From: Camelus ferus
Lineage: Eukaryota
DNA length: 64,000 nucleotides
NCBI RefSeq assembly: GCF_009834535.1
Contig: NC_045696.1
Coordinates: 41,480,001 to 41,544,000, forward strand
Direction: 5' to 3'
Below the pieces are notes generated by a model that worked only from the letters and a program-made list of their open reading frames with translations, had not been told where the DNA came from and did no database searches. Positions within the stretch are counted from its first letter, which is position 1. Every line of letters starts with the position of its first letter. Below, one piece after another: positions 14,194 to 63,500 of this stretch. The translations under genes and the position numbers were made by a program.

Positions 14194-16715
14194 ATCCTCA
14201 CCAAGATATTAGCAAGTAGAATCCAATAGCACGTAAAAAAGATTATACATCATGACCAAGTGGGGTTCATCCCAGGGACACAAGAGTGGTTCAACATACG
14301 CAAATCAATCAATGTAATACATCACACCAACAAGAGAAAGGACAAAAACCACATGATCATCTCAATTGATGCAGAAAAAGCATTTGACAAAATTCAACAC
14401 CCATTTATGGTAAAAACTCTCATCAAAGTGGGTATAGAGGGAATGTATCTCAATATAATAAAAGTTATATATGACAAACCTACAGCCAGCATAGTATTCA
14501 ACGGTGAAAAACTCAAAAGCTTCCCACTAAAATCTGGGACAAGACAAGGATGCCCACTATCACCACTCCTATTCAACATAGTCCTGGAAGTCCTAGCCAC
14601 AGCAATCAGACAAGAGAGAGAAATAAAAGGGATCCAAATTGGAAAAGAAGAGGTAAAAGTGTCACTATATGCCGACGACATGTTACTATATATAGAAGAC
14701 CCTAAAAGGTCCACAAAAAAACTGCTAAAGCTGATCGAAGAATTCAGCAAGGTAGCAGGTTACAAGATTAACGTTCAAAAATCATTTGCATTTCTTTACA
14801 CTAACGATGAATGAACAGAAAAAGAAAATAAAGAAACAATCCCCTTTAAAATAGCACCCAAAGTAATAACATACCTAGGAATAAATCTAACCAAGGAGGT
14901 GAAAGAATTATACACAGAAAACTATAAACCACTGATGAAGGAAATTAAAGGAGACTTTAAAAAGTGGAAAGATATCCCACGCTCTTGGATTGGAAGAATC
15001 AATATTGTTAAAATGGTCACACTGCCCAAGGCAATCTACAGATTTAATGCAATCCATATCGAATTACCCAGGACATATTTCACAGAACTAGAACAAATCA
15101 TAATAAAATTCATATGGAACCATCAAAGACCTAGAATTGCCAAAGCATTACTGAAGAGAAAGAAAGAGGCTAGAGGAATAACTCTCCCAGACTTCAGACA
15201 ATACTATAGAGCTATAGTCATCAAGACAGCATAGTATTGGTACAAAAACAGACATATAGACCAATGGAACAGAACAGAGAGCCCAGAAATGAACCCACAA
15301 ACTTTTGGTCAACTAATCTTCGACAAAGGAGGCAAGAATATACAATGGAATAAAGACAATCTCTTCAGCAAATGGTGTTGGGAAAACTGGACAGCAGCGT
15401 ATAAAGCTATGAAGCTAGAACACTCCCTTATACCATACACAAAAATAAACTCCAAATGGATCAAAGACTTAAACATAAGACAAGATACACTAAACCTCCT
15501 AGAAGAAAATATAGGCAAAACATTATCTGACATATATCTCAAAAATGTTCTCCTAGAACAGTCCACTCAAGCAATAGAAATAAAAGCAAGAATAAACAAA
15601 TGGGACCTAATGAAACTTACAAGCTTCTGCACAGCAAAGGAAACCATAAGTAAAACAAAAAAACAACCTATGGAATGGGAGAAAATTTTTGCAAATGAAA
15701 CCGACAAAGGCTTGATCTCCAGAATATATAAGCAGCTCATATGACTTAACAAGAAACAACCAAACAACCCAATCAACCCAATCCAAAAGTGGGCAGAAGT
15801 CCTAAACAAGCAATTCTCCAAAGAAGACATACAAATGATCAATAGGCACATGAAAAAAATGCTCAATATCACTAATTACCAGAGAAATGCAAATCAAAAC
15901 TACAATGAGGTATCGCCTCACACCAGTCAGAATGGCCATCATTCAAAAATCCACAAATGACAAATGCTGGAGTGGCTGTGGGGAAAGGGAAACCCTCCTA
16001 CACTGCTGGTGGGAATGCAGTTTGGTGCAGCCACTGTGGAAAACAGTATGGAGATTCCTCAAAATACTAGGAATAGACTTACCATAGGACCCAGGAATCC
16101 CGCTCCTGGGCATATATCCAGAAGGAACCCTACTTCAGGATGACACCTGCACCCCAATGTTCATAGCAGCACTATTTACAATAGCCAAGACATGGAGACA
16201 GCCTAAATGTCCATCAACAGATCACTGGATAAAGAATAAGTGGTATATTTATACAATGGAATACTACTCAGCCATAGAAACCAACAACATAATGCCATTT
16301 GCAGCAACATGGATGCTCTTGGAGAATGTCATTCTAAGTGAAGAAAGCCAGAAAGAGAAAGAAAAATACCATATGAGATCGCTCATATGTGGAATCTAAA
16401 AAAAACAAAAAACAAAAACAAACAAACAAAGCATAAATACAAAACAGAAATGGACTCATAGACATAGAATACAAACTTGTGGTTGCCAAGGGGGCGGAGG
16501 GTGGGAAGGGATAGACGGGATTTCAAAATTGTAGAACAGACAAACAAGATTATACTGTATAGCACAGGGGAATATACACAAGATCTTATGGTAGCTCACA
16601 GAGAAAAAAATGTGACAATGAATATACATATGTTCATGTATAACTGAAAACTTGTGCTCTACACTGGAATTTGACACAACATTGTAAAGTGATTATAAAT
16701 CAATAAAAAATGTTA
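14194..16715 (+). mobile_element. Relatively young 5'-truncated LINE-1 (RT domain to 3'UTR), inactive
   Basis: ORFs at 14260, 14899 and 15289 share a frame, contain QGCPLSP and YADD RT motifs, and are separated by nonsense codons. A frameshift precedes 15887. Cys-rich C-terminus (HCWWEC, CTPMF) and a terminal AATAAA. Confidence 0.97.
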
Positions 16716-47861: not shown

Positions 47862-48025
47862 GGGGTGGGGAGGGTATAGCTCTGTGGTAGAGTGCAGCTC
47901 AGTGGTAGAGTGTGTGATTAGCACGCACAAGGTCCTAGGTTCAATCCCCAGTACCTCCAGCATAATAAATAAACCTAATTACCTCCCACCTCCAAAAAAA
48001 AAAAGTCTAGATTGGAACTTTTTTT
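47862..48025 (+). mobile_element. tRNA-derived SINE (camelid vic-1-like)
   Basis: A box tagctcagtgg, B box ggttcaatccc and AATAAA repeats. TSD aaagtacaagttc at 47849-47861 and 48026-48038. Confidence 0.93.
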
Positions 48026-55470: not shown

Positions 55471-57925
55471 AAGTAATTAATCATTTTAAGCCACTGATTT
55501 TGTGGTAGTTTGTTGCAGCAACAATAGGAAACGAAGACAACTAAGTACTGAAGCTATATTTAAAAGGCGATCGATCACGAAAAACGTGATGAGAAAAATG
55601 AAGCACACTTAGCGAAACCGCGATGGAGACGCTAATGAAGGTCTCTAACAGACATAATGCAGAGCAACCTGTTATAGGGAAATACCCAAGGTCTTCTGGA
55701 GAATCCATGAGCAATTGAAAAGAAAAGTTTCTTTACTCATTATCAACTCATCCACATCCTGACCAAGGAAAAGAAAACAATCTGTGGTTTCTGAAGGCTT
55801 TTGTTCCTTCTCTTTGCCACTTCCTCTTATATAAATCCCATCTTTTCCTCTGATAGATTCAATCTACTACTGTTTCCCTTATCAACAAAATGCTAATAAT
55901 TCATTATAGGCTGTTGAGTTACACTTTAAAAGTCTTTGATAAGTTTCAAATAGACTTTTAAAAAAGCTATACTTTGAAATATCTGTGAAGAAAAGCCTCT
56001 AAAACACTTGGTCAAATGACATTCAACTAAGAAAAGTTAGAATAAGTAAGTTAAAGCAAAAGAAAAAAGTTAATACAATAGTCTGAGTTCTTGGTTCCAA
56101 ACTGAAATTATCCTTAGCTAACTGACAAGCAATCATATTAGTGATATAAAATGCTATGTGCTGAATAGATTAATTAGATATTTGGTAAGCAATAAATACA
56201 CATAAACAATAATCAAAAGATTCCTCAAATAATTATAAATATACTATGTTCTATCAAAAAATGCATTAAGTCCTTATTCTGTAAGGAAATTCAATTTATA
56301 GATATAATAATTTTTAAAGGAAAAGCTTACTATGTTTGCATTGCCATGAAAATTCATAATAGCATCATCAACTAAGCCAACCTCTTCAATGGTGATGTCT
56401 TAATTCTACTTGAGTTTTTATAGAAGCATATGACTTACAACACATTTTACTCATATGGAGTTTTTGCCCCAGCAAAGACAGGTTCCCCTCCTTTTCTTTA
56501 TTCTTCAGCAGAGACTGAGGCAGAGAGGTTAAACAGCTTGCTTGGGTCATACAACTAGTTAATAGTCAAGTCAAGCCTCCTGACTCTTGACCTAGGACTC
56601 TCCATGGCCCCAAACTGTGCAAACTAGAACACTGTGAAGAATGCCACATGCTGTCAAACTCCATGTCCAATAAGAATTCAAGTGTTTGGAGGGTTAGGTT
56701 AAAGATCTTCTCAGATCAGTCCTGACTAGGGATTCTGGATTTAACACTATGGCTGACTCTCCACACTTGGGAGATGCAGCCCCAGTTTCCACAAAGAACA
56801 AATATGTATTTTCCTTGTGAAGTTATACACATGTAAAATATAGATACTTGTCAAGATTCTTTTTGGTTTCATTCACATGCAAAAGTCATCTATGGCTGAA
56901 ACCAGGTGAGATGAGGATATGATCTTTACGCAAGAGAGCCAAGAGAACTTTTTTAAATGAAACTCTCCCCCAGTTTGCACCAGCACTTATGCAGTTAATA
57001 CCTCTTTTCATTTTCTGTATTTACATGATAAGTTTCTCTACTTCCCACCGGAAAATGTCTGGGAACTTATTTCAGACTGTTTATTTTAAGTTAGGGGAAT
57101 TTAAACAGAGGTTAATCAGTCCCAATTGTTTAGAAGTGGGTCACAGATTTTGTTTCCTCTTAAATTAAAATGCCTCGTGGCTGTTGATGTGAGAATACAG
57201 AAAGGTCACCAGCTTTCTTCCTTTGCCTTTAGAAATAAACAAGACACTATACACATACTAAACTATACTCATAGTCAGGTTGAGGATTAAAGTCCCTGGA
57301 CTATGACAGCATAACAGCCAAGCAGCACCTGGCCTGGGGGGTGAGGAGGACATTACAGGACTGTAAGAACTTGCTTCCAAGGCCATGGATGAAGGAACTG
57401 AGGTTAGAAAAGACATGAGCTTCAAGCACTACTGCTTGCTTCCTAACTAGTGCTCGATCTAGTGGGTGACTAAACCCATCTGAGTTTGAGAACAGAATGG
57501 GTACTAGCACTTCCCTTTCTACTCATTCATCTTTAGATGAATAGAAAATTCATCTTTTTTACTTAGGATTCTTTAACATATCATAATAATCATCAAGTCT
57601 TTTTTTTAGTTTTTATCTGAAAGTTACTTTTAAGTGATGTTTATCATCATCAGTACTGGAGTTCTTTTCCGTAATCTATTTGTAATCCTAATGTGCTGAT
57701 CAAGTGCTATGTGGTAGAAATATGCTGGCTTGGAGGACTTAGAGCTGAAATGTAGGGGTTGTGAAAGAAATTGGTGTAGAATCTTTTTGAGGTTCAGTAA
57801 ACCAAGGCATCAATCACAGTAGGATACATTTTATGGAGGGGAAATGATGCCATCTTATTTGAAGATATAAAATATGAAAATTAGAGTAAGCATCAAAGCA
57901 AAGCCCATTAGCAAGAAGGAAAGCA

Positions 57926-58082
57926 GGGAGGAGGGTATATCTCAGTGGTAGGGGGGAGGGTATAGTTCAGTGGTAGAGTGCATGCTTAGCATGCACAAGG
58001 TCCTGGGTTCAATCCCCAGTACCTCCATTAAATTAAATAAACAAATAAACCTAATTACCTTCCCCTCACCCCCCCAAAAAAG
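57926..58082 (+). mobile_element. tRNA-derived SINE (vic-1-like)
   Basis: A and B boxes, gcatgcttagcatgcacaaggtcctgggttcaatcccc. TSD core aagaaggaaa at 57913-57922 and 58084-58093. Confidence 0.93.
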
Positions 58083-58469
58083 TAAGAAGGAAAACATTCA
58101 TGGGATAATTAGGAGTTAAAGAACAGAAAGGAAGCCATATTATTTTCCCAGAAGTTTAATGTTCATTCTGCAGAGTTGCTGTAAGAGTTGAGTAGATACA
58201 AATTATACCATATACTTTCACTCACATGCAGCCTGGCACAAAGTGTATGACCAACAAATATTTATTGAACTTGGATGTGAGAAACAGACAGCAGTAGAAA
58301 AGCAGGAATAGGAGTATGAATATTTGATTTTTTTTTTTAAGCATTAGCTACACTGGCGGAGTTCTAAGTAAATGGAAAAATCTGTTGTGGCAACTAGAAT
58401 AATTCTCTTTGTTTTTATGATGCGTACACTAGAAAATTTTCTGTGTGAGTTCTCACTTGAAAATGCTCA

Positions 58470-58761
58470 GACTCACAGACATAGAAAACAAACTTATGGT
58501 TACCAAAGGGGGAAAGGGAGGAGGAAGGATAAATTAGGAGTATGGGATTAACATACATACACCACTATATATAAAATAGATAAACAACAAGGATTTACTG
58601 CATGGCACAGGGACCTATATTCAATATCTGGTAATAACCTAAAATGGAAAAGAATCTGAAGCTGTATACCTGAAACTAACACAACATTGTAAATCAACTA
58701 AAGTTAAATAAAAATAAATAAAAATAAATCCCAGCATCCTCTAAAAATAAATTTACAAAAT
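58470..58761 (+). mobile_element. Short LINE-1 3' end with small 3' extension
   Basis: TSD aaaatgctca at 58460-58469 and 58762-58771. Confidence 0.9.
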
Positions 58762-58939
58762 AAAATGCTCAAGTTTCCCAAGTTATTCAGATATCGATTA
58801 TCTGTAAATTAAATGATATATATGATCAAATATAGCAACTTTGTTTTACAAAAAAAGCAAATGAACAAAACTTTTAAAAAATAAAGCCAATATAATGTAG
58901 CAAGACAATCCCATAAGCAATATTTGAAAATCAGTCTTA

Positions 58940-59567
58940 AAGATACATTTATTTCTGATTATAATAAAATCAAATTCTCAGGGAGGACTCAATAATTTCT
59001 TGCCAGCTAAAGGGAAGCTACTGTGGGATTTTAGCCAAGAAACTGAATGCTTTTAAGATTAGAATGCATTACTGAGTCTTAAATTTTTTAAAATACCTGA
59101 GCAACTGATTTTATAGTTTGTGGAAAGCACAGACTAGTATTACTAGCTATGAAAGTTATATTTCTTTCATAACTAATCTTTCTCCTTGATTTCTCTAGTA
59201 ATGGCCTTTGTGTAATCCTGTACTTCCTACTGGGATTTAGAGCTGGAGGACGAGGATTACTCACACACACAATTCAGTCCATCACCCTCGTAAAAGTATA
59301 TCTATATTTACACTTGTAGGAACCATGTATGTTATGACATCGAGTGAAGCTGCTGCACTGATACTGACCAAGGGAGCATTCATCTACATCTGCATCTGCA
59401 TCCAGTAGCAGGAAAAGAAGAGGTTTATTTGGGGAATAAATATACCAAAAAAAAAAAAAAATACACAGTTTCAAAAATATTTTTGCTTTTCAATGTGAAA
59501 GTCCATGAAAAACTGGCAGATAATCAGAAGAAATAAAGTACATGTGCATCCTAGAAAGAAAAGAAAA
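58940..59567 (+). mobile_element. Non-L1 retrotransposed insertion (orphan transduction or retrocopy-like)
   Basis: TSD gaaaatcag(t/c)ctta at 58926-58939 and 59568-59581. AATAAA at 59532-59537, A-rich tail at 59553-59567, and TTT/GAAAA at the left nick site. Confidence 0.75.
59265..59389 (-). pseudogene. NPNT: Isolated nephronectin-like calcium-binding EGF pseudo-exon, frameshifted
   Basis: [28 protein letters not shown], then YEGDGLNCV in a shifted frame. This matches recalled NPNT ([39 protein letters not shown]). cag acceptor, gtgagt donor, 125 nt. The fifth Cys is lost. Confidence 0.85.
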
Positions 59568-59589
59568 GAAAATCAGCCTTACTCGAACC

Positions 59590-59720
59590 AAAATTCAAAG
59601 TCAAGAGAACTTGGGACAAAACTGGCTCTACTACTAATAAGCTGTGTCACCGTGAACATATGACTTCAGCAAGCTAGACCTCAGTTTCAACGTACATAGA
59701 GTAGTGCATGGAACGTCTGA
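59590..59720 (+). mobile_element. MIR fragment
   Basis: ctggctctactactaataagctgtgtcacc...cctcagtttc. Confidence 0.6.
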
Positions 59721-59974
59721 TTATATTTCAAGATCATTTAGGAAAAATAGTTCAGCTTAATGGATTTATAAATGTTTTATGTGTCCGTCATGGCTTATAT
59801 TTAGCAGAGGCAGTATGGCACAGAAGAAAGAATAGACTTAAGACTAGTTTCTTAGCCTCAGGACAGTCAATCTCCTTGAGTCTGATCACTTTTGAGTATT
59901 AACCTCATTAATACTCATTTTATAAGGTTCTTATAAAATTTTAAATAGATGTACTTAAACATATATTTCACTGG

Positions 59975-60590
59975 TGACTCTCATTCATTGCTAGTGGGGA
60001 TGTAAAATACTTCAGCCCCTTTGGAAGACAGTTTAGCAATTTCTTATAAATTAAATATACTTATAAATCATATACCATATGATTCAGCAATCTCACTCCT
60101 TAGTATTTATCCAAAGGAGTTGAAAACTTTTGTCCAGCCAGAAATCTGCACACCTATGTTTATAGCCACTTTATTCACCATTGCCCAAACTTGGAAGCAA
60201 CCAAGATGTCCTTCAGTAGGTGAATGGATCAATAAACTGAGGCCCAACCAGACAACAGACTATTACTCAGCACTAAAAAGAAAAGACCAGCAAGCCACAT
60301 AAAGACATGGGGGAAACTTAAATGTGTATCACTAAGTAAAAGAGGCCAATTTGAAAAGGCTACTTACTGTATGATTCCAACTACATGTCATTCTGGAAAA
60401 AGCAAACTATGGAGACAATAAAAAAGATCAGTGGTTGCTGGGAGGAGGGGCGTGTGGAGGGATGAATAGGTGGCGCACAGAGGATTTTTTATATTCCTAG
60501 TAGAGTGAAACTACACTGTATGATATTACAATGGTGGATACACGTCATTGTACATTTTCCAAAATGCTGAACCTAAGACTGCTCTAAAAA
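59975..60590 (+). mobile_element. L1MC-like 3' fragment
   Basis: PYDSAISLLSIYPKELKT...CTPMFIA and ggatgaataggtggcgcacagaggatttt. Confidence 0.9.
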
Positions 60591-63500
60591 AAATGAGTCT
60601 ATTTTTTCAAAAAATATATTACACAAAGAAGGCTTTAAGAAAATTCTATCCCAGGCTCTTTCCAAAGGTAAGCACAAAGATTTACCGAAAAATACGTTCA
60701 ACAAAATAATTATGTTGATTGCAAAAAGATACGTTTGTAATTGCTCTCCGCTCTCAAGAGATGAATGGGGGAGAGAAAGGGGAAAATGTCAAGTTGTCCA
60801 ACCAAGGATTAAAATATTTTCATTTTAACATTAACCAAGTCTTTGTAATGATCAGCACAAGTCATTTAATAAAAAACATTAGGCAGCATATAGAGAAGGG
60901 AGAGACAGAATACAAAGTTTTATCCTTGATTAAGCTCTTCATTTGGTCAAATAACCACAAACATCCTTTAAAGTAAGCATGACAAGATCCACCCCCTTAG
61001 GCAGCTGCTTTCCAAACGGTGCAGCTGTGCTGTAATCTGAGTTATTGGAAATTCTCAAAACTGGGATATTATAGCCTATGAAAAGTAAACCAGAGTTGAG
61101 AAACTCCACTGATTTCCAACATGAGAAAAAAGTACCTTCCATTTTCACATGGTGAGTCATGCATGTATTTATTTTTCAGAGATAAAATCTCCCCAGTATT
61201 ATTTCAGAATTATTAAAAAGACCTCGGCTGTGAGTCTACAGGACTTTCTGCTACTTAATTAAGCAGGACATAGGACAGCACACCTTCAAATACCTACACG
61301 GGTGTTAGTCAGAACAACGTGGGCTCTACAGAGGAGGTGGTGGGGTTACAGAATCGTACTCATCACATGATTGTTTCTTTAAAGCCCAAGTCCTCAGCCA
61401 AGAGGAGTTTTCACTTCTCTGTAGCCATAAGCACACAGCAAGATTATCCCTTGTTCAGACAGGTCTCTCCAGTACAAGTCAGAAGACATGAGGAGACTGG
61501 AATACAACTATTCAAAGACCAGCCTCAGAATGAGATACGAAGAATTTCCAAATATTTTTAGATTTTAAAACAAATGTCTTGGCTCTACTCATTTCTAACC
61601 AATCAAATCTTCACTGTGCATCTATTGTGAGTAAAGAACAATGACACATCTACAACATTTTTGGATTACTGCAGTCTTTTCTAATTTCTTCCTTTCCCTT
61701 CTCAGGGACCAAATGGGTGTATCATCTTCTTAAAAAAAAAAAAAAAAGCAAACACTAGGATGTGTTTTAAAAGCTCATCTGAGAAAACTGAAAAACTATC
61801 CTAACATCACTTTTTATTTTCCAGCTGGGACTAAAGACTGAGGTAATGGGACTATATGATATGCTCAGGACTGGTAGGTAGCTGTTTAAAGAAAAGTTGA
61901 TTGATGTGGGCAATCAAAAATTGACTAGTACTTTACACATTTTAACTAAAACATGAAAATATACATTTATTTACCTATCTTCATATATAAAGAAAATTAT
62001 CACAATATCACATTCAAATTTCCAATGACTCTCAGGGCAGGAAAGAACACAGGGTCCCTTGTCAAGCAGTAGGAGTGAAAACGCTTTCTAGATTAGTGTG
62101 ATCACTCCCTCCAGTCTCAGTTACCTCATTCACACCTAATTAGGCAGCAAGCACAGTGCCATGGTTTTCCATCCAAACATCCAAAGCATTCATCTTAGTT
62201 TCCTTAAAAATAATTCTCATTCCAATATTTATTTCATTGATGTATACATCAAACTAGATGTATATAATTATAACATAACAAGTATATACTAGATTGTATA
62301 ATAAAATACAGAAACTGGAATTAAAAGATTTCAGAACAGTTTAATTGGTGGAGGCAGTGCTAGAGAGCAGCCCGCGGTTTGCGGACAGGCTCAGTACGCT
62401 ATCAGCACTAGAAAAAGCCTCTCAGAGGAGGAAAGTGCCACAGTCAATACAGAAAGCTGGTGAATGAATGTCAACGGGAAGTGCTTCTGTCTAATTAACT
62501 GGGGTGTCTGGATTATGACCATGAGAAAACAGGCCTAATTAACACCTTTCCCAAACATCGTTCCAAATTCACATCATTTGTGTATCTCCAAAAGTCTTAT
62601 TTTTCTGTGGATATGGGGGGGGGGGTGGTTCTCATGTGCATGCGCGCGCACATGCATGCAATAGAGGATACTGTGAACTGTCTCCAAGCACTCTAGGAAT
62701 GTTTCTAAAGCTTATTTTTTTTATTTGGCAATTTTTAAAACATGTGTTTTTTTCTCTGCATCATCCAAAAAACCACCTCAAAGCTGAATACTGCCTCCCC
62801 AAGAATTACGATCCTGGGAGCACGAATGACCACATAATTTAACTTTGTATATGGAGATAAGCATGGCTAACTGCTTTTAGTTGCTACCATCTAATGTCAA
62901 GCTAACTGCTCTGCACTGTTTTCACATTGAATTCTTGTTACCAGTTATAAAGACAATTTCCCTTTTACCAAGAAAATCTGTAGTTGAAAGGCATGTCTTT
63001 CAGAGAAGCAGACTTCAGTTTAAGAGATTAACATTGAAGGCTATTTGATACAAAACCAACATGGTATGGTGGCAAAATGTATTAATTGTCACAAATTATG
63101 AGGAATAGCATCAATGTACTCACACCAAGCAAGAGACAAATCACATCCGAACTTAATATAAAAGAAGTTTTCAACAGTTTAAAATTTCCAGTTAAGGATC
63201 AAGAAAAGGAATAAGGAAACCTGAGTTACAGTCATGTCATTTTTAAAAGGGATGCATTAATCACTTCTAGTATTTACAGATTGACCTCAACCTGAGAGCA
63301 GTGTTTAAACTATTACTATTTTCAACATCTGCAAAAATCAAGAAATTCAGATATTTTTTTCTCTAGTAATTTGATTAAATGCCACTGTAATACAGAATTC
63401 AATAACAACACAATGATAATCTTGTCTTGAATCAACATGAAAACTTTAAAGTGATATGTTATTTACAATGGCATCTAGAATTGTTTCTTGCTAGAATTTT

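Follow-up and report, generated by a model that had tools for sequence, protein, structure and literature searches.

A segment of about 617 bases on contig C1 (positions 58940-59556 of the window, that is, of the whole 64-kb stretch of DNA that was analysed, C1:41480001-41544000) is very probably an old L1 target-primed retrocopy of an unspliced, polyadenylated RNA that ran antisense through the nephronectin gene (NPNT) on contig C2. The parts of the insertion and the sequences that bound it are the following, in window coordinates.

58923-58930, plus strand, L1-endonuclease-like target site TTT/GAAAA (bottom strand TTTTC/AAA)
58926-58939, plus strand, left target-site duplication, gaaaatcagtctta, matching the right repeat at 13 of 14 positions
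58940-59264, plus strand, intron copy, 3' of the EGF exon, antisense; the first ~322 nt of the following NPNT intron
59265-59389, minus strand, decayed copy of the NPNT calcium-binding EGF exon, 125 nt (Pfam EGF_CA, E 1.1e-08)
59390-59556, plus strand, intron copy, 5' of the EGF exon, antisense; ~157 nt of the short preceding NPNT intron, up to the putative antisense cleavage site
59532-59537, plus strand, AATAAA, putative poly(A) signal of the template RNA; 16-19 nt separate it from the last templated base
59557-59567, plus strand, untemplated A-rich tail, agaaaagaaaa (9 A, 2 G), directly 5' of the right repeat
59568-59581, plus strand, right target-site duplication, gaaaatcagcctta, matching the left repeat at 13 of 14 positions

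The DNA of 58940-59567 was searched against the own genome (2.09-Gb assembly), and two matches were returned, the window itself and a locus on C2 (C2:74476975-74477576, minus strand, E 1.1e-180, 84% identity, covering bases 1-617 of the 628-base query); a longer query led to the same single C2 source. There is thus one parental locus, elsewhere in the genome, and the homology is confined to the insert. A sensitive blastn comparison of window 57000-61500 with the 3.6-kb source locus (L002) gave one alignment, window 58939-59556 against L002 2103-1501 (518 of 620 columns identical), and no second alignment besides it. The homology begins at the final base of the left repeat and ends 11 bases short of the right repeat; base 58939 is also identical to the source, so that the left junction is ambiguous by one base. 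Local alignment of the 250-nt flanks with the source flanks found no homology, both scores lying at or below the mean of 300 shuffles each (243 of 300 shuffles reached the observed score for one flank and 281 of 300 for the other); for the first 250 nt of the segment, used as a positive control, none of 300 shuffles reached the score. Directly beside the segment, 58736-58938 and 59557-59976 match nothing else in the genome, so that a paralogous empty site does not exist. A segmental duplication, or the true NPNT locus, was rejected as the identity of the segment, because the homology spans 617 bp only, the flanks score no better than shuffles and NPNT lies on another contig.

Most of this had been anticipated by an earlier note made from the letters of the window. 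The near-identical direct repeats, the AATAAA and A-rich tail on the plus strand and the TTT/GAAAA site were found where it had placed them, and the segment, which it had described as free of L1 sequence, aligns to NPNT over the whole of 58940-59556. Its reading of the minus strand as an NPNT-like EGF exon with acceptor, donor and intron flanks agrees with the EGF_CA match, the AG and gtgagt signals and the C2 alignment. It had further predicted that a same-genome search would return one contiguous intron-exon-intron match inside NPNT ending at the repeats, as is the case, and had named homology past the repeats as an outcome that would speak against it; this was looked for in the flanks and none was found.

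The source segment lies inside NPNT, for which 13 exon matches of a 569-aa nephronectin were recovered in order along C2:74433994-74501559 (plus strand); the insert covers one of the 13. The source exon (C2:74477132-74477254 = L002:1658-1780) is intact, 123 nt long and of phase 1-1, i.e., it opens with the last two bases of a split codon and closes with the first base of another. Dromedary nephronectin isoform X3 and several cetacean isoforms match it at 100% identity and marsupial nephronectins at 88-90% (among the best 120 of 163 proteins in the homology search, of which the named ones are almost all nephronectin). A PDB sequence search with the same exon returned 35 chains, all of them generic EGF proteins (NELL2, ADGRE5, uromodulin, Notch) and none of them nephronectin, and so had no bearing on its identity. 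The match of the preceding NPNT exon ends near 74476914, which leaves an intron of about 217 nt, 157 nt of which were copied; the next NPNT exon (C2:74478615-74479010) is 396 nt long. In the whole-genome search with nephronectin protein the sole match on C1 is the copy (41539250-41539396, minus strand, E 1.2e-10). That the window holds no other NPNT exon, as the earlier note had also stated, was borne out by tblastn of three nephronectin proteins against all 64 kb, in which only 59250-59387 was significant and every match elsewhere had an E-value of at least 0.13. The exon is conserved in NPNT from placentals to marsupials, whereas the C1 copy is frameshifted, and the direction of copying is taken to be from NPNT on C2 to C1.

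Two further similarities were noted in these searches. Five matches to the EGF region of nephronectin (40-67% identity) are clustered on the plus strand of C37:16729961-16740582, a locus which is probably the NPNT paralogue (EGFL6). A short element of 64-98 bp, found in the window at 57951-58048 and 47896-47959, recurs with 82-90% identity in NPNT introns, once at L004:3997-4068 and once at L005:1-98, and is probably a small interspersed repeat unrelated to the retrocopy.

The target-site duplication flanks the insert exactly, abutting the end of the homology on the left and, on the right, its end beyond the tail. L1 endonuclease prefers 5'-TTTT/AA-3' on the nicked strand, and the site at the left junction (TTT at 58923-58925, GAAAA at 58926-58930) is a near match to this consensus, not an exact one. 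A tail together with such duplications is described in reviews (PMC7692494, PMC5470649) as the mark of L1-made retrocopies. In a chance test the boundaries were set by the independently determined homology ends; of 200,000 random placements within the window, 37 showed a 14-mer repeat so arranged with at most one mismatch, and so did 7 of 1,173 placements with an A-rich 12-mer after the right boundary. The repeat starts with GAAAA and the tail is only 11 nt long and impure, so that tail and repeat are not cleanly separable.

Past the end of the homology the source reads ctactagcgtttgaatttc... (fuller stretch ctactagcgtttgaatttcacttctgtttgtttc), with no A-rich run, and the tail of the copy is therefore untemplated by the DNA. 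Just past the cleavage point the source has a T/GT-rich stretch (gtttgaatttcacttctgtttgtttc). The hexamer, the cleavage point that follows it after 16-19 nt and the T/GT-rich stretch beyond that point in the source are, taken together, arranged as is usual for a poly(A) site. The present-day source has no AATAAA (it reads AAAAAA at this spot, AGAAAAAAG, with one T fewer); hence either the source has since lost the hexamer or the copy acquired it once it had been inserted.

It is very improbable, in our judgement, that the 617-bp piece of NPNT was pasted into C1 at the DNA level, by repair or segmental duplication, and that tail and repeat are a coincidence of AT-rich sequence. Such a course would be compatible with a tail that is short and impure, with a repeat that is partly A-rich, with the frequency at which an A-rich right boundary alone yields such a repeat (the 7 of 1,173 placements above) and with a present source devoid of AATAAA; but it does not predict that a hexamer 16-19 nt from the homology end, a tail absent in the source and abutting repeats should coincide, nor does it predict the TTT/GAAAA target or the T/GT-rich stretch past the cleavage point, and the copied length is only 617 bp, with flanks that show no homology.

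The tail, the hexamer and the geometry of the repeats all lie on the strand opposite the EGF exon, which places the template RNA antisense to NPNT, in agreement with the earlier note. A sense pre-mRNA was rejected as the template, since the hallmarks are on the opposite strand from the exon and the left end has no T-run, and a twin-priming inversion of a sense retrocopy was rejected because no sense-oriented part bearing a tail is present. In the retrocopy reading, then, an unspliced polyadenylated RNA would have run antisense through NPNT from C2:74477577 down to 74476975, taking in 322 nt of the intron after the EGF exon, the exon itself (123 nt, phase 1-1) and, of the 217-nt intron before it, 157 nt, and would have ended at a cryptic antisense poly(A) site. 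An antisense RNA displays no NPNT splice sites, and these would have been invisible to the spliceosome, so that intron, acceptor, exon and donor would have arrived together, unspliced, and the acceptor-exon-donor unit would have been carried as one DNA cassette. L1 target-primed reverse transcription into C1 at TTT/GAAAA would have produced the A-rich tail and the 14-bp duplication, L1 proteins being the presumed copying agent, and the cassette would then have drifted neutrally while its exon was frameshifted and gained a stop.

The surroundings of the source were searched for L1 by tblastn with ORF2 pieces of an L1 of the window (RVT_1, E 1.2e-34). An L1 in the same orientation, i.e., antisense to NPNT, was found at C2:74479042-~74480750 (L003:2043-~3750, minus strand); it is a 1.7-kb, 5'-truncated element that retains only the C-terminal part of ORF2 (tblastn with the read-through ORF2, L003:2432-3750) and the 3' UTR. 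It ends in an intact A8 tail, which is situated 1,465 nt upstream, in the antisense direction, of the 5' end of the segment and ~31 nt from the donor side of the NPNT exon ending at 74479010, which is unusually near to a conserved exon. The terminal hexamer region of this L1 reads agtaag, not AATAAA. Its best paralogs are 73-80% identical (40 of 17,051 candidates scored), so that the element is probably older than the retrocopy. One AATAAA (C2:74478456) is situated between the L1 and the segment. Roughly 6 kb further upstream (L003:3751-10000) held no L1, reverse-transcriptase or endonuclease part in tblastn with the read-through of the window L1 and in blastn against the window L1s. Upstream of the 5' end of the segment, 1,038 nt of intron are unique except for a low-complexity patch of ~65 bp and hold no promoter-bearing repeat; a TATAA-like word ~20 nt upstream of that end was rejected as a promoter because it is too weak. 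A second antisense fragment of the C-terminal part of L1 ORF2 is present in the next NPNT intron (L004:1098-1720, C2:~74488100-74488720, minus strand); read in the antisense direction, it precedes the source segment by ~11 kb.

An orphan transduction is the fully 5'-truncated form of L1 3' transduction. By this route the L1 at C2:74479042-~74480750 would have been transcribed past its own weak poly(A) signal, the RNA continuing through the 396-nt exon and 1 kb of intron to the antisense AATAAA, and would have been copied in cis with such severe 5' truncation that only the last 617 nt were inserted. An L1 3' end of the same orientation with its A8 tail at the distance given above, a terminal hexamer region that is no longer AATAAA and paralog identities that fit an L1 older than the 84-86% identical pair of copy and source would all agree with it. 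Set against these, the upstream L1 has no promoter or ORFs of its own, the AATAAA at C2:74478456 would need to be bypassed, and the insertion is without L1 sequence from end to end; an L1 3' end joined to transduced sequence, absent here, is by definition missing in the orphan form. We consider this origin unlikely.

In its present, promoterless state the upstream L1 could not have launched a 3' transduction, and its truncation to 1.7 kb makes mobilisation in trans more likely than 3' transduction. We infer that an ordinary transcript, antisense or read-through, served as template and was mobilised in trans, and not by an L1 3' transduction; such trans mobilisation, whether the transcript was 5'-truncated or not, is somewhat favoured over the orphan transduction, and a read-through RNA crossing the antisense L1 is a possible origin of the template. 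The earlier note had left the choice between a transduction and an antisense transcript, and of these two the first has become the weaker because the L1 is a promoterless 1.7-kb fragment; its advice to look for an antisense L1 or a promoter upstream of the source led to the L1, which is 5'-truncated, and to no promoter-bearing repeat near the 5' end.

The copied exon scores 35.6 bits against EGF_CA (cut-off 27) and, on the minus strand, is preceded by a pyrimidine tract and an AG (59391-59390) and followed by the donor gtgagt (59264-59259). A second AG, at 59397-59396, was created by a 6-base tandem duplication (GCATCT on the plus strand; 59390-59401), and further along the copy an A15 run occupies 59447-59461 where the source reads gatggcacaaaaaga; either the run and the gcatct duplication arose after insertion or the source changed. 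The exon measures 125 nt in the copy versus 123 nt in the source, a net insertion of 2 bases that shifts the frame, and an in-frame TGA (59273-59271) stands 9 nt before the donor. The claim of the earlier note that a symmetric phase 1-1 EGF module had been delivered thus stands for the source exon, while the copied exon is now broken and is a fossil of such a module.

Copy and source exon are 86.2% identical, with a K2P distance of 0.156, which is also the value for the whole copy. The intron part after the exon (58940-59264 against C2:74477255-74477577, 322 aligned columns) is 88.2% identical with K2P 0.130, and the part before the exon (59390-59556, 156 aligned columns) is 81.4% identical with K2P 0.214. 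The exon copy has therefore diverged as much as the intron parts and has drifted like non-coding DNA. Three CpGs remain in the copy versus eight in the source; outside CpGs the two differ at 12 of 113 positions in the exon and at 60 of 468 in the intron parts. These counts fit together imperfectly, since the 10.6% in the exon would fall nearly all on the branch of the copy if the source exon stayed constant, and the 12.8% in the introns is spread over two branches; possible reasons are small numbers, constraint on the NPNT intron next to the exon and a locally faster rate on C1.

Neutral rates in mammals are 1-2.2e-9 per site per year, and together with the K2P values they suggest an age of roughly 30-110 million years for the retrocopy. 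With K2P at 0.156 the event is tens of millions of years old, and pig and cow may for this reason lack the empty site that the earlier note expected. From the K2P range of 0.13-0.21 the insert would be present throughout the camelids and perhaps in a wider group. Twenty of the 24 listed sequencing-run rows hold all or part of 58700-59800, and in DNA sequencing runs of three organisms 0.91-0.93 of 111 sampled words from this interval are present, which fits an old, fixed insertion.

No sign of exon use was seen in the frame of the copied exon (frameshift and TGA), in its intron-like divergence or in the neighbourhood, where no host exon was detected, and completed exon shuffling was rejected on the same grounds. 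That the exon is a real local one, belonging to an NPNT paralogue or exapted after insertion and used on the minus strand of C1, is so improbable that we give it next to no weight. Its AG and GTGAGT signals are kept, and of the words sampled from 58700-59800 a fraction of 0.57 is present in RNA-seq run X15 and 0.56 in X16, both labelled reproductive system metagenome; part of this interval may be transcribed, or the RNA libraries may carry DNA. To be weighed against these signals are the broken frame, a divergence as high as that of the intron parts, the absence of another EGF or NPNT-like exon from the window, and the 75 ORFs of at least 62 aa in its 38-64 kb portion, all 75 without a Pfam family except for two L1 reverse-transcriptase (RVT_1) fragments, in a scan that would miss short exons without Pfam domains. 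Of the 1-38 kb portion only those ORFs were scanned that rank among the 18 longest of the window, and these 18 gave one RVT_1 match.

A fuller reading is that NPNT had a genuine natural antisense transcript, polyadenylated and made in the germline or early embryo tens of millions of years ago, of which the retrocopy is the fossil. Its cassette would have reached C1 as a phase 1-1 calcium-binding EGF exon ready for splicing, and a host transcript from the minus strand may have tried it as an alternative exon before decay set in. This seems improbable to us; if true, the locus would be a natural, datable intermediate of EGF-module shuffling via antisense RNA.

As a probable unspliced retrocopy made by L1, the NPNT insertion is a fresh case of an established mechanism and a clean natural example of it, now decayed. 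In the closest parallel, CFTR exon 9 (reportedly so from Rozmahel et al. 1997, Genomics 45:554, and Ejima and Yang 2003, Hum Mol Genet 12:1321), an exon and its intron flanks are said to have been dispersed across human chromosomes via RNA unspliced at that exon, the copies bearing L1-type insertion hallmarks. Here too an exon has reached a different chromosome together with its two splice sites and flanking intron sequence, and with a tail and a duplication; unlike CFTR exon 9, the NPNT case is a single copy, has no L1 sequence attached and concerns a symmetric phase 1-1 EGF module. Exon shuffling by L1 was reportedly achieved experimentally in cultured cells by Moran et al. 1999.

With L1 3' transduction (described in PMC5470649 with reference to Goodier et al. 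2000 and Pickeral et al. 2000) the insertion shares non-L1 DNA that ends at a downstream poly(A) site, the tail and duplication, and a same-orientation L1 upstream of the NPNT source; it differs in containing no L1 bases and in that the upstream L1 is a promoterless 1.7-kb fragment 1.47 kb off. Like a classical processed pseudogene, the copy has a 3' poly(A) remnant, target-site duplications and a source gene elsewhere, but it keeps introns on both sides together with the splice sites and is antisense, not a copy of an mRNA; the identity of a processed pseudogene was rejected because introns are retained and the tail is on the strand opposite the exon. Like the microRNA retrocopies of PMC7692494, which preserve a record of parental transcription, the NPNT retrocopy would record an unannotated transcript end, in this case an antisense poly(A) site in the 217-nt intron; the microRNA retrocopies derive from sense transcripts of microRNA host genes, whereas the NPNT transcript would be antisense to a protein-coding gene. 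Literature searches, made without the name NPNT, returned no paper describing an NPNT retrocopy, and we do not claim that the case is unpublished.

The textbook unit of exon shuffling is the EGF module flanked by phase 1-1 introns, and to our knowledge there are few natural intermediates that show an exon moving together with its splice sites. The locus illustrates a workable route, in which an antisense RNA, unspliced and polyadenylated at a cryptic site, would be inserted by L1 as an acceptor-exon-donor cassette, and it illustrates the usual fate as well, since the cassette decayed, apparently unused. For annotation it serves as a warning that what looks like a lone EGF-like exon, good splice signals included, can turn out to be a dead retrocopy, and standard retrocopy screens, which are based on intron loss, would miss unspliced antisense retrocopies. 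Its interest is illustrative more than surprising.

Elsewhere in the window L1 and other repeats were observed. The L1 whose ORF2 pieces served as queries has ORF2 sequence at 14230-15744 (plus strand), in three consecutive stop-to-stop ORFs of one frame (194, 139 and 169 aa), the first of which gives the RVT_1 match of E 1.2e-34; only two stops over about 1.5 kb indicate a fairly young L1 copy. An interspersed repeat of ~310 bp (59977-60300), of which at least 38 other copies with 76-79% identity were found (from 5,364 first-look candidates), starts 400 bp to the right of the insertion. On the left of the insertion, about 190 bp away, the plus-strand stretch 58500-58735 ends in aaataaaaataaataaaaataaat and resembles the 3' end of a laurasiatherian L1.
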